Of a stretch of 58,048 bases of DNA, positions 2,088 through 50,220 are shown piece after piece. Made by a program: the position numbers and the translations under genes. The DNA is from a virus (lineage: Duplodnaviria > Caudoviricetes). The stretch spans positions 1-58,048 of the IMG/VR virus record IMGVR_UViG_3300034128_000015. One strand, given 5' to 3'. The notes under the pieces were generated by a model that saw nothing but the letters and a program-made list of their open reading frames with translations, ran no database searches and was not told the DNA's origin. Positions within the stretch are counted from its first letter, which is position 1, and every line of letters begins with the position of its first letter.

Positions 2088-4679
2088 TTAGATCCGTGTC
2101 TTCAGTGTGTAGAGCATTTCCAGCGCTTTTCGCGGTGTCAAGTCGTCCAGGTCAAGTTTTGCCAACTCATCCAGCACCGGATGGGGCAGGCTGGCGAACA
2201 TATCGCTCTGGTGTGGCGCGCTGGATTTGCTGCTGGCCTTCTTCGTGCTGGCGACCACGGTTTCGTGGGGCAGGGCGGTGGCCTCCAGACGGCTGAGGTG
2301 CTCGCGGGCGCGGGTGATCACGTCGTTCGGCACACCGGCCAACTGCGCCACGGCCAGGCCGTAGCTCTGGCTGGCCGGCCCTGGCAACACATGGTGCAGG
2401 AACACGATACGCTCGTTGTGCTCGGTGGCATTGAGATGCACGTTGGCCACCAGCGGCTCGCTTTCCGGCAGCACGGTCAGTTCGAAGTAATGGGTGGCGA
2501 ACAGCGTATAGGCGCGCAGGTGCGCCAGGCGCTCGGCCGCCGCCCAGGCCAGGGACAGGCCGTCGAAGGTGCTGGTGCCGCGGCCCACTTCGTCCATCAG
2601 CACCAGGCTGCGCTCGGTGGCGTTGTGCAGGATGTTCGCGGTTTCGCTCATTTCCACCATAAAGGTCGACCGGCCACCGGCGAGGTCATCGCTGGAACCA
2701 ATCCGCGTGAAGATGCGATCCACCAGGGACAGCTCGCAACTGGCCGCCGGTACAAAGCTGCCGATATGCGCCAGCAACACGATAAGCGCGGTCTGGCGCA
2801 TGTAGGTGGATTTACCGCCCATGTTCGGACCGGTGATCACCAGCATGCGGGTATCGTCATCCAGCGACAGGTCGTTGGCGACGAACGGCGTGGTCAATAC
2901 CTGCTCCACCACCGGGTGGCGACCCTGAACGATGCGCATGCACGGCTCGCTGACAAACCGCGGGCAGTTCAAGTCAAGGTTCAGCGCACGTTCGGCCAGG
3001 TTGCTCAGCACATCCAGTTCCGCCAATGCGGCGGCGGTGTCTTGCAACGGCGCCAAGCGGCCGATCAAATCTTCGAGCAGCGCTTCATACAGCATCTTTT
3101 CCCGCGCCAAGGCGCGGCTCTTGGCCGACAGCGCCTTATCTTCGAACGCTTTCAGCTCCGGGGTGATGAAGCGCTCGGCACCTTTTAGGGTTTGACGACG
3201 TTGATAGTCGATGGGCGCCTGCTCGGCCTGCTTGCTCGGCAACTCGATGAAGTAGCCATGCACGCGGTTGTAACCGACCTTCAGGTTGGCCAGGCCGGTG
3301 CGCGCTTTTTCGCGGGCTTCCAGGTCAATCAGGAACTGCCCGGCGTTCTCGCTCAGGGACTGCAGTTCATCCAGTTCGCTGTCATAACCAGTCTTGAGCA
3401 CGCCGCCGTCACGGATGATCGCCGGCGGGTTGTCGATGATGGCTTTTTCCAGCAGCGCCGCCAGGTCCGGGTAGGTGCCGGCAGTTACCGAAAGTTGTTG
3501 CAGGTGTGGCGTGTCCAGTTCGGTCATCGCCACTTGCAGTTGCGGCAGGGCGCTCAAGGCATCACGCAGACGCGCCAAGTCACGGGGCCGCGCGTTGCGC
3601 AGGCCGATCCGCGCCAGGATGCGCTCGATATCGCCGATTTCTTTCAACTGCGGCTGCAGCTTTTCGAAGCGATAGCCGTCCAGCAGGCAGGTAATCGACG
3701 TCTGCCGCGCTTGCAATACCGTCAAATCCCGCAGCGGGCGGTTCAGCCAACGGGTCAGCAAGCGGCTGCCCATGGCGGTCTGGCAACGGTCCACCACCGA
3801 TTGCAGAGTGTTGTCGCGGCCGCCGGCCAGGTTGGTGTCCAGTTCCAGGTTGCGACGGCTGGCGCCATCGAGCACGACGGTGTCGTCCAGGCGCTCATGG
3901 CGCAGGCTGCGCAAGTGCGGCAGGGCGGTGCGCTGGGTTTCCTTGGCATAGCTGAGCAGGCAACCGGCGGCGCCGATGGCCAGGGTCAGGGTTTCGCAAC
4001 CGAAGCCCTTGAGGTCCTGCACGGAGAACTGCTGGCACAGGCTTTTCAGCGCCGAATCACGCTCGAAATCCCACGGTGCGCGACGCTTGGTCCCACGACG
4101 ACGTTCCGCCGGCAGGTCCTTTGGCCAATCATCCGGGATCATCAGCTCCACCGGATTGATACGCTCCAGCTCCGCCAGCAGGTTCTCCCAGCCTTTGGTC
4201 TCCAACACACTGAAGTTGCCGCTGGTGATATCCAGTACCGCCAGGCCGAACAGCCGCTCATCGCCGAGCACCGCGGCGATCAGGTTATCGCGACGCTCAT
4301 CCAGCAGCGCCTCATCACTCACCGTCCCCGGCGTAATAATGCGCACCACCTGACGCTCCACCGGCCCCTTGCTGGTGGCCGGGTCGCCGATCTGCTCGCA
4401 GATCACCACCGACTCGCCCAGCTTCACCAGCTTGACGAGGTAGCCTTCCAACGAATGGTAAGGAATCCCACACATCGGAATCGACTGCCCCGCCGACTGC
4501 CCACGCGCGGTCAGGGTGATATCCAGCAACTTGGCGGCCTTCTTCGCGTCTTCGTAGAAGATCTCGTAGAAATCGCCCATGCGATAGAACATCAACTGAT
4601 CAGGGTGCTGGTTTTTCAGGCGCCAGTACTGCTGCATCATTGGGGTGTGGGAGGACAGATCGGAAATTGGCTTATTCAT
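2088..4679 (-). CDS. mutS: DNA mismatch repair protein MutS (863 aa; first codons supplied by the prophage end)
   Basis: [37 protein letters not shown] at 4679 chosen by homology with the copy at 50220. Confidence 0.97.
4639..4650 (+). repeat. attL core ATTGGGGTGTGG
   Basis: Identical to 50180-50191; both continue with NNGGACAGATCGGAA...TCATCAGA. Confidence 0.88.
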
Positions 4680-4708
4680 CAGAGGCTTAGGGGAAATTAA
4701 TAAAATGG

Positions 4709-4726
4709 TGGGGCGAAATTGGGGCA
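4709..4726 (+). repeat. Putative integrase arm-type sites (left)
   Basis: TGGGGCGAAATTGGGGCA tandem resembles TGGGGCAAAAATGGGGCA at 50041. Confidence 0.6.
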
Positions 4727-4857
4727 TTCACTGCCACAGATGGATGGTGGCTATTTCGCATTGCGTGCCCGCTATGTCTCAATAATTGAGGGTAACATGT
4801 GATGAACCTGTTGGCTCAGCGTGAGCCGCAAGATGACTACTGATCAAAGGGCTGCAG

Positions 4858-6153
4858 ATGAAACGGACGTTCCCTGGTTACTTCTCAAACGATGCAGACT
4901 CCCTAAAGGATACCTGGGCTCGGTGTCTATTCGTTTTGGATGCGAACGTCCTCCTTAGCTTGTATCGCTATTCGGATGAAACTCGCTCGGAGTTGTTTGA
5001 TATTTTCAATCTATTGAATGATCGTATTTGGGTGCCGCATCAGGTCGCTAGTGAATATTTAGTCAATCGTATTGGTGTTATCGGGCAGCAGGTTAAGCTC
5101 TATGATGATGCAATAAAAAATGTAGACGAACTGAGGCGCTCCTTTGAAAATCCCAAGCAGCATCCTTTTATAAGTGGCGAAACGTTGGTTGAGGTTGTTG
5201 GTGCTTTTGATAGGGCTGTGTCGGATTTGGCCGCGAACAAAAAACTGTACTTGTCTAAAGTGGAGGATGATGACGTAAAAGATCAACTCGAGCATCTTCT
5301 CGATGGATGTGTTGGTTCTGCGCTGTCTGCTCAGGATCAAGCCGATGTTTTGGTAGCGGGATCATTGCGTTATGCGCAAAAAATTCCACCTGGGTATAAA
5401 GATGCGAAAAAGGGTGGTGATTCTGAGTTGATCTCTGACAAGCTTAAACCTTTTGGTGATTATATTGTTTGGAGACAGACGCTTGAAAAAGCAAAGAGTT
5501 CTAATCAGCCTGTTATTTTCGTAACGGGTGATAGTAAAGAAGATTGGTGGACGATTTATAGTGGTAGGCCTATAGAGCCACATCCTCAGTTGGTTGATGA
5601 GTTTGTGCGCGAAGTTGGTGAAAGGTTTTTTATGTATCTTCCAGAAACGTTCATGACAAAAGCGAATGAGTTTTTAAATCGGGTCACTTCTCAAAGTGCT
5701 ATTGATGAAATTGTAGATGCTCGAGCTGAGGAAGTTGAAAGTGAAAATTTCAAGTCTAGAAAGTTTTTCTCGGATATTTCTCGGAAAACGTTGACTCTAA
5801 CCCCTACTGCTGAGTATCAGAAGTATGTGTTAAGTTCTGAGAGGGATGCGTTAGAAGTTCAAATGATTGAAATGCAGTCGCAGATGAACAAGCTTGAGGG
5901 TAAGATTGAAGCCATTACATATAGTATTAAAGATGTGCAGGGGCGTTACAACGTTTCTATGAAGAGCTCTAATGGTGTTGAATCGGCTCATTCTGCTAGG
6001 TTGGCTAACGTAGTTCGTGATATGGGGACTGATCTGCTAGCGGCAAAAATGGAATTTGAGGCTGTCGAACAGAGCTACAGTGCTATGTACCTCCATCTTT
6101 CAGAGTTGAGGTGGGAAATCGAGGCTATTACTGGTGCTGAACCGCCTCGATAA
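4858..6153 (+). CDS. PIN-like domain protein with C-terminal coiled coil (moron, candidate defence effector)
   Basis: VLDANVLL, PPGYKD, GDYIVW, FVTGDSKEDWW motifs; heptad-rich C-terminus; AT-rich. Confidence 0.75.
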   Translation: MKRTFPGYFSNDADSLKDTWARCLFVLDANVLLSLYRYSDETRSELFDIFNLLNDRIWVPHQVASEYLVNRIGVIGQQVKLYDDAIKNVDELRRSFENPKQHPFISGETLVEVVGAFDRAVSDLAANKKLYLSKVEDDDVKDQLEHLLDGCVGSALSAQDQADVLVAGSLRYAQKIPPGYKDAKKGGDSELISDKLKPFGDYIVWRQTLEKAKSSNQPVIFVTGDSKEDWWTIYSGRPIEPHPQLVDEFVREVGERFFMYLPETFMTKANEFLNRVTSQSAIDEIVDARAEEVESENFKSRKFFSDISRKTLTLTPTAEYQKYVLSSERDALEVQMIEMQSQMNKLEGKIEAITYSIKDVQGRYNVSMKSSNGVESAHSARLANVVRDMGTDLLAAKMEFEAVEQSYSAMYLHLSELRWEIEAITGAEPPR

Positions 6154-49674: not shown

Positions 49675-50040
49675 CTGCACACCCTCAAAAAAACGTCGGT
49701 TTTGCATGATGCCATAACGACATAATGAGGGGCAGTAGAATTGGTAAATAGTCTTCTGAAGAGCGTGCATTAAGTACGATGGCGCTCGCATGCACAGGTC
49801 GAATGTAGTGAGCAAAAAGCTCTTTCTAGCTTTTCGTCTGATATAGCATTGACTCCTTTCGAAAAAGAAAAAGGCATAGTACCGGTAGTACTCTTTGTGG
49901 GCGGTAAATGCTGCATGCTTAGAAATTGCTACAAAGCATTGTGTTATCGAGGAATTAGCCAGGCTGGCCGGGGGCGACGAGCGACTACGCCCAATCCATC
50001 ATCGGACGGATCGTTTCTCTAGAACCTCGAGCACCGAGCG

Positions 50041-50060
50041 TGGGGCAAAAATGGGGCAAA
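50041..50060 (+). repeat. Putative integrase arm-type sites (right)
   Basis: TGGGGCAAAAATGGGGCAAA. Confidence 0.65.
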
Positions 50061-50172
50061 CCATACGCCAATCTATGCCACCCAATGCCAATTATACGTT
50101 TATGCAACCTGAAGCATGCGCGCATTACAGCCAGCAACCACGGGCCTATCCCCCAAAATCCCTTACATACCC

Positions 50173-50220
50173 CTACACAATTGGGGTGTGGCTGGACAGA
50201 TCGGAAGTGTTTTTACTCAT
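50173..50220 (-). pseudogene. mutS: Displaced mutS 5' end ([13 protein letters not shown], then IV-stop in phage DNA)
   Basis: Aligns codon for codon with the start of mutS at 4679. Confidence 0.85.
50180..50191 (+). repeat. attR core ATTGGGGTGTGG
   Basis: Identical to 4639-4650. Confidence 0.88.

Follow-up and report, generated by a model that had tools for sequence, protein, structure and literature searches.

A temperate phage in the H-T-P codons of a Pseudomonas mutS gene that appears to supply the gene with a replacement start

How a prophage can split the mismatch repair gene mutS within its first codons and yet keep the gene whole, and whether such an arrangement could let the phage tune mismatch repair, are the questions raised by a 58,048-nucleotide stretch of viral DNA (positions 1 to 58,048 of IMG/VR virus record IMGVR_UViG_3300034128_000015; below, the window is this whole stretch). 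In it, a complete-looking temperate, contractile-tailed prophage occupies the 45,541 bp between two short direct repeats, one of which lies at the start of mutS, and the host appears to be a Pseudomonas that belongs to the P. fluorescens group and is close to P. paraveronii and P. veronii. The original prediction, made from the letters of the window, had proposed both that the phage supplies mutS with a new start and that integration and excision could act as a mutator switch. Our results support the first proposal, and we put the probability at roughly 85% that a temperate phage sits in the H-T-P codons of mutS and, by mimicking the mutS 5' end, keeps MutS full-length. A lambda-type tyrosine integrase with an arm-binding domain would integrate the phage at the H-T-P codons near the mutS start, using a phage attachment site (attP) that would carry a leader of about 50 nt, an ATG, and 13 codons (MNK[AP]ISDLSSHTP) resembling the 5' end of mutS. 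Conservative recombination inside the block shared by phage and host would then swap the host start and leader for those of the phage and leave MutS full-length, while the host start and leader would be stranded as a 15-codon orphan at the far attachment site (attR), 45.5 kb off, beside a tailocin repressor gene. The main effect would be a neutral preservation of mutS that makes a highly conserved target usable at no cost to the host.

The anatomy of this insertion is directly visible in the window. The 12-bp sequence ATTGGGGTGTGG occurs exactly twice, at 4639-4650 and at 50180-50191, both on the plus strand. Taken alone, this 12-mer is weak (two or more matches at up to one mismatch occur in 6 of 100 shuffles), and it is enclosed in a 64-nt direct repeat (4627-4690 and 50168-50231; 75% identity, spacing 45,541 bp) within which a 12-bp and a 13-bp block match perfectly. 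The copy at 4639-4650 (attL) covers the H-T-P codons and thus lies in the HTPMMQQ motif used by mutS-resident elements; the copy at 50180-50191 is its attR counterpart. mutS itself (2088-4679, minus strand) is intact, and from the ATG at 4679 it encodes 863 amino acids with all five Pfam MutS domains (MutS_I to MutS_V), codons 1 to 10 being supplied by the phage and the remainder by the host. The protein aligns without gaps to that of P. veronii locus L002 (97.9% identity) and to those of three phage-free relatives (97-98%), and its first 250 residues, MNKPIS included, are 100% identical to those of P. paraveronii genome G001. The frame is open upstream as far as an ATG at 4727, and homology to the relatives points to 4679 rather than 4727 as the start. 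At the far end of the prophage, a second open reading frame begins with the host start MSKNTS at ATG 50220 (50173-50220, minus strand) and reads ..HTPIV*, stopping after 15 residues. The coordinates and peptides originally given for both core copies were all correct, and the frame and the relatives bore out that mutS starts with the phage-side MNKPIS at 4679, while the host start at 50220 does stop two codons after the core. The element thus gives mutS a new start and upstream region with the gene remaining in frame, and it is well supported that the start codon, about 10 codons, and all DNA upstream of mutS are phage DNA, and that the prophage splits mutS in its first codons yet keeps it whole.

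Chimeric joins or a chance repeat could mimic this arrangement in the absence of any real insertion, and it is true that the source is a metagenome-derived record and that the 12-mer alone is not significant. However, one 37.7-kb contig of the run that holds the window spans positions 3600-6400 with zero differences, and the same attL/attR architecture is found in isolate genomes (L056, which is genome G003, and L001, L052, and L066) and in many viral contigs, so that we give an assembly artefact next to no credence.

The host side of the exchange was examined in loci anchored on the PrtR neighbor of mutS, for which 472 relatives were found in genome contigs and 80 Pseudomonas loci were fetched. 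An intact mutS start lies within 6 kb in 68 of the 80, mostly of the form MSK[NTA].S, and in the nearest relatives the start reads MSK[NTA]. at about 160 bp from prtR, such that the orphaned start in the window matches those of its close relatives. Four loci (L001, L052, L056, and L066) hold the same orphan, ..HTPIV*, two hold a different one (L034 and L058), and seven show no such motif. MNKPIS at the normal distance from prtR is confined to more distant species (L071 and L072), with MNKAIS in L070; had phage-free relatives started mutS with MNKPIS, the insertion would have been called into question, and the MSK.. start of the nearest ones instead favors it. Empty host sites (attB) were also observed directly, as contigs of runs X2 and X3 match the window's mutS up to 4665 and then continue with 30 letters from the host side of attR (around 50207). 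As a side observation, the distance from the mutS start to prtR is 1-5 kb rather than about 160 bp in many phage-free genomes of this set (L001-L080), and because of these the gap between mutS and prtR appears to be a hot spot for small insertions that spare mutS.

Codon polymorphisms suggest where in the repeat the exchange took place. Codon 10 of mutS reads TCC at attL and AGC at attR, and a crossover in the 13-bp block, TTCCGATCTGTCC, was considered as AGC and TCC are polymorphic; it was rejected, as attL copies of other lysogens carry AGT at this codon. These copies have phage-type codons at two positions (AGT at codon 10 and TTA at codon 8), and because AGT at codon 10 occurs in none of 70 host copies, the exchange would lie 3' of codon 10. 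Identity of attL with attB ends after ..AAT, and attL and attR diverge directly beyond, so that the crossover probably falls within the 12-bp block. A small deletion at excision, which would frameshift mutS and give rise to hypermutators, has been described for Vibrio splendidus 12B01 by Chu et al. 2017 (mBio, PMC5296598; cited here and below for the part of the article available to us), where only the Vibrio strain leaves such a scar, of 2 bp. For the window we regard this as very improbable, since the att copies share the 12-bp block in the same frame, such that conservative exchange would restore the host form, as seen in the relatives and the empty-site contigs, and since precise excision, with no scar, is reported for the three other genera tested (E. 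coli 536, Burkholderia multivorans CF2, and P. putida F1; PMC5296598).

The original prediction had further read the synonymous TCC/AGC difference between the two copies as a sign of selection on the phage copy. This single difference is uninformative because hosts have either form (AGC in 4 of 70 copies of host codon 10), as do attP copies. The wider claim of selection is supported, as the peptide is preserved in 47 phage-side copies despite many synonymous codons; Leu at position 8 is encoded by six different codons among them, and Ser10 by TCC in 13, AGT in 12, AGC in 5, and others in the rest.

The link between this integrase and mutS was observed across the whole family. Relatives of the window integrase at 68-92% identity were found at 76 loci in viral contigs, and in 49 of these a mutS-like start, MNK[APQV]IS[DE]LS.HTP, lies downstream of int on the same strand, while the remaining 27 show nothing, many of them stopping just past int. 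The 49 comprise 43 that run into MutS (attL), one attR orphan, three of the attP type (L093, L106, and L151), L133, and one odd case. Two of the attP-type records, L093 and L106 (36,496 and 38,967 bp), combine direct terminal repeats with a CheckV completeness of 100% and lack the MutS body, because of which they are complete unintegrated phage genomes with an attP that carries the mutS mimic. In Pseudomonas, the integrase (E <= 1e-100) is present in 16 of 201 genomes, and in 13 of these mutS follows it on the same strand at a distance of 59 bp to 3.1 kb, mutS coordinates not being listed for the other three. Among 401 genomes sampled across the class, one non-Pseudomonas genome has a 58% identical integrase followed by a GCCCCA pair and a mutS start.

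Two variations on this theme were noted among the viral and host loci. A second form of the site, present in the orphans of L034 and L058 and in L133 (ATG 6664), has a mimic five codons longer, ..HTPMMQQY followed by GLEMV* (in L133, ..MMQQYGLEMV*); the L133 integrase is 91% identical to that of the window, and the crossover of this second form could lie at the same place as that of the window type. In Aeromonas phage pAEv1818 (L166), int is followed by two GCCCCA pairs about 190 bp apart, and a short open reading frame between them ends ..SHIALMQH* in DNA that resembles the HTPMMQQ codons. This phage may target mutS in Aeromonas, judging from this resemblance.

The phage DNA upstream of mutS consists of a short conserved part and a variable remainder. 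In 48 phage-side copies, conservation upstream of the ATG extends only from about -50 to -1, with the consensus ATGCCCCATTTTTGCCCCACACATTTTAACGAATAACGCTAAGCCACTG followed by ATG, and this leader of about 50 nt is homologous to the native mutS leader. Within this consensus lie two GCCCCA motifs with an 11-bp spacing, one at -46/-47 and the other at -35/-36 relative to the ATG; in the window, where the P arm (4651-4857, minus strand) comprises replacement codons 1-10 (4650-4679) and the phage leader, they lie at 4709-4714 and 4720-4725 (-35 and -46). The other arm, P' (50041-50091, minus strand), has its own GCCCCA pair at 50041-50046 and 50052-50057, or +163/+174 counted from the orphan ATG, and three TGGC[AG]T repeats with 10-11 bp spacing precede this pair at about 50061-50091. 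The P'-arm positions are fixed, being shared by the three type-1 attP loci and by all six of the attR copies examined, and the P' pair is absent from L133. Downstream of int, GCCCCA pairs are likewise present in two Aeromonas phages with 41-42% identical integrases, in addition to the non-Pseudomonas genome in which the 58% identical integrase abuts mutS. Taken together, the pairs on both arms are candidate arm-type sites for the Arm-DNA-bind_2 domain of the integrase.

Several points weigh against our explanation. The window is a metagenome-derived virus record, and the identity of the host is judged from the similarity of the flanks. The one run that holds the window has no contig of the attB or attP form, a result limited to contigs, which drop rare forms. 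Among the cultured phages of the collection searched, no integrase exceeds 60% identity (the best, at 41.7%, belong to Aeromonas phages), and cultured phages yielded no blastn match to 4651-7500. The crossover is placed by polymorphisms rather than by mapping. Moreover, that mutS is transcribed from phage DNA, within 4680-4857, is an assumption: because the PIN domain gene upstream of mutS is divergent, the mutS promoter would lie in 4680-4857, or else transcription would read through from int across the PIN gene, and a simple scan of 4500-5100 for sigma-70-like promoters found none, nor was one found in the native region, an uninformative result. In a relative, RNA contigs extend beyond the mutS ATG by over 100 nt on the upstream side, which hints weakly at a long 5' untranslated region there.

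A phage promoter might also alter the strength or regulation of mutS, such that lysogeny and excision tune the mutation rate. All DNA upstream of ATG 4679 is phage DNA, with the native leader 45.5 kb away, and phage-side sequence beyond about -50 is unconserved in the family, so that the region upstream of mutS would vary with the phage. Further, the prophage encodes UmuDC-like and SRAP proteins together with an S24-type repressor, and Chu et al. 2017 proposed the same switch (PMC5296598). Nevertheless, the proximal 50 nt of the phage leader are homologous to the native ones and may retain the proximal signals, four relatives hold the phage start after the prophage has decayed, in three of them with no integrase found, which makes the exchange irreversible there, and mutS is intact after excision in P. 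putida F1, E. coli 536, and B. multivorans CF2 with no phenotype reported in the available text (PMC5296598). We therefore consider such a regulatory switch improbable, though clearly less so than a scar left at excision. The mutator switch put forward in the original prediction is likewise unsupported and unlikely to be the main role, as mutS is intact both in the lysogen and at the empty site and the phage start is kept after prophage decay.

The decay of such prophages can be followed from the 45.5-kb element of the window through its relatives, with elements of 42, 10, 6.2, 4.8, and about 3 kb at the mutS site (the last without an orphan). The 42-kb prophage of G003 (L056), with a 91% identical integrase, occupies the same site. 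In G001, a 10-kb remnant without an integrase still has the tail, lysis, and methylase segments of a phage resembling that of the window; G002 holds a 6.2-kb remnant in which the methylase-to-UmuDC segment of the window prophage is what survives; G004 has a 4.8-kb remnant with a truncated integrase; and G005 has an MNKPIS start with no orphan whatsoever. The phage-donated mutS start is retained in all of G001-G005, and because decayed relatives keep it, a reversible switch is unlikely as a general role. The series shows a route by which a phage-donated start may become fixed.

This raises the possibility that the long mutS 5' ends taken as native in most Pseudomonas are themselves relics of earlier phage insertions. 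mutS 5' regions were fetched from 60 of 198 genomes with a match, hand-picked along the ranking. A long start, M[NS]K..S-DLS.HTP, is present in 47 of the 60 and a variant of it in 3 more; these 50 genomes carry both GCCCCA motifs (at about -46/-35) in 12 cases, one in 18, and none in 20. The GCCCCA motif is absent from the remaining 10 genomes, whose starts are short or of other kinds. Five of these 10 have a different Phage_integrase open reading frame, of 329 amino acids, directly upstream of mutS, two have cinA-recA there (a truly empty site, with starts MSDLS../MSQSDLS.., one of them MSDLSNHTP), two have prtR, and one is odd. Long-start leaders are homologous to the phage P arm, and the GCCCCA pair looks like a phage feature because it is found alongside the integrase elsewhere too, on the P' arm, in Aeromonas phages, and in a non-Pseudomonas genus. 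Against a relic origin, neither an orphan start nor a P'-arm motif was found near mutS in five phage-free genomes, and the transfer may have gone in either direction between phage and host. We accordingly hold the relic reading only tentatively and give it somewhat less than even odds. The tailocin cluster was also considered as a decayed donor of the long start and found unsupported, since prtR directly precedes a short-start mutS in two genomes and since the same five phage-free genomes lack both orphan and P' motif.

If the relic reading were true, the start, the leader, and probably the promoter of a core repair gene would have been repeatedly replaced by phages across the genus, arm sites of the integrase would lie inside the annotated mutS leader, and the annotated mutS promoters and N termini of many Pseudomonas would be phage derived, which bears on studies of mutS regulation and of hypermutators.

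The 329-amino-acid integrase marks a second family of mutS-targeting elements in Pseudomonas. Its open reading frame (MRPRKKDRHLPACMYQKHGAYYLV..) is present at L228-L232 (genomes G130, G152, G178, G051, and G115), where mutS starts with MTDLSSHTP and similar peptides. The leader of these loci holds CTGTAGTATTAGACAG, of the form CTGT-N8-ACAG, which we take to be that of a LexA box.

Returning to the window, the DNA between the repeats has the content expected of a complete temperate phage, with modules for integration, immunity, replication, packaging, head, tail, and lysis each recognized by Pfam and PHROGs matches. Next to attL and divergent from mutS lies a cargo gene for a PIN_8 domain protein (4858-6153, plus strand; Pfam PF18476, E 4e-59; phrog_9788, unknown function). 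It is followed by the tyrosine integrase (6165-7406, minus strand; Pfam Arm-DNA-bind_2 and Phage_integrase; phrog_1), with its N-terminal arm-binding domain, and by a 65-amino-acid excisionase that overlaps the int start (7373-7570, minus strand; phrog_539, E 3.7e-14; no Pfam match), so that the arm-binding and catalytic domains and the excisionase of a lambda-type system are all in place. The immunity and replication region (12568-16833) encodes a CI-like repressor (12568-13233, minus strand) and, on the plus strand, a Cro-like helix-turn-helix protein (13261-13563), a CII-like protein (13889-14407), and a primase/helicase (14608-16833). The late region (17536-39695, plus strand; PHROGs and Pfam) begins with holin (17536), TerS (18271), TerL (18877), portal (21109), protease (22587), and major head (24089) genes, continues with baseplate (27810), tail fiber (29289), sheath (31722), tape measure (33885), and tail protein (37505) genes, and ends with a GH19 lysin (38581) and a spanin (39153). 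A 300-nt repeat of 75% identity (17719-18018 and 51749-52048) joins the prophage holin to that of the tailocin cluster outside the prophage, both being Phage_holin_3_5 proteins.

Two further blocks lie between the late genes and attR. The cargo region (39845-43664) encodes a DNA methyltransferase (39845-40639, plus strand), an SRAP (YedK-like) peptidase (41163-41873, minus strand), and UmuD-like (41969-42394) and UmuC-like (42387-43664) proteins on the plus strand, the latter pair being recognized by Pfam IMS, IMS_C, and DUF4113 and by phrog_811; an element lodged in a mismatch repair gene thus carries a translesion polymerase module (41163-43664). Beside attR is a 5.9-kb block of low G+C content (42-44%; 43943-49815), set apart by composition and likely to be accessory cargo, with four open reading frames of 518, 147, 305, and 640 amino acids and unknown function, all on the minus strand. 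None of the four has a Pfam or PADLOC match, and one has a weak PHROG match of unknown function; PADLOC detected no defense system in this block or in the PIN protein. A 55-nt repeat of 87% identity is present in the block at 45616 and 47528.

Outside the prophage, the flanks are those of the host. Beyond attL, mutS is followed by a ferredoxin and an Mrp/ApbC-type ATPase. Beyond attR come the native mutS-prtR intergenic region, with the native mutS leader, and a gene for a PrtR-like S24/helix-turn-helix repressor of the tailocin cluster (50221-51153, plus strand; Pfam), then holin and baseplate genes. The available portions of Mavrodi 2009, Loper 2012, and Ghequire 2015 describe this tailocin cluster as known beside mutS in this group and place prophages "between mutS and cinA". 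Our literature search found no paper on insertion inside the mutS codons in the P. fluorescens group, although the strain table of Chu et al. 2017 may list such cases.

Compared with known systems, the window prophage differs from regulatory-switch phages ("active lysogeny"), in which the target is inactivated or silenced by integration and regained on excision, as its mutS gene is intact. Among elements that are not phages, SXT supplies a new start and promoter to prfC. The SXT/R391 integrative and conjugative elements resemble the window prophage, as far as the available text describes them, in inserting site-specifically in the 5' end of a conserved gene that is not lost, and differ in being conjugative elements with another target (PMC5812530). 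The dusA-associated integrases and islands likewise replace the 5' end of their target, with putative promoters before and after integration, but their target gene is dusA, their integrase family is another, and most are islands, according to the accessible part of Farrugia et al. 2015 (NAR, PMC4482086). Closer in target is SpyCIM1 of Streptococcus pyogenes, a phage-like element in the 5' end of the mismatch repair gene mutL; there, in the text available to us, the integrated element shuts off the repair operon until growth-phase excision restores it, a true reversible mutator switch, whereas the gene in the window is intact when integrated (Nguyen and McShan 2014, PMC4129442).

The closest counterparts are the elements of Chu et al. 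2017, who described, at the mutS start of V. splendidus 12B01, an element of 27 kb lodged in the conserved motif that provides a new start and promoter and leaves the host start orphaned upstream (PMC5296598). With their integrase BLAST, hundreds of Beta- and Gammaproteobacteria were found to hold elements of 4 to more than 150 kb at the HTPMMQQ motif, some of them prophages and some decayed (PMC5296598). The window prophage shares with these elements the HTPMMQQ insertion, the integrase adjoining mutS, the element-supplied start and upstream region, and the orphan that matches relatives, and it differs from the examples in the available text in its host, of the P. fluorescens group, and in being a complete contractile-tailed phage. 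It raises the same question as that study, namely, whether the swap of upstream DNA changes mutS expression and mutation rate. By these anatomical criteria the window holds one more mutS-resident element of this kind, a well-resolved Pseudomonas example of a phenomenon published in 2017. It illustrates that a phage can land in a highly conserved bacterial stretch at no cost to the host by carrying working first codons and a leader. To the known picture, our findings add conserved GCCCCA pairs on both attP arms, attP in complete free phages, a decay series with evidence that the phage-donated start outlives the phage, and a second integrase family at the same site.

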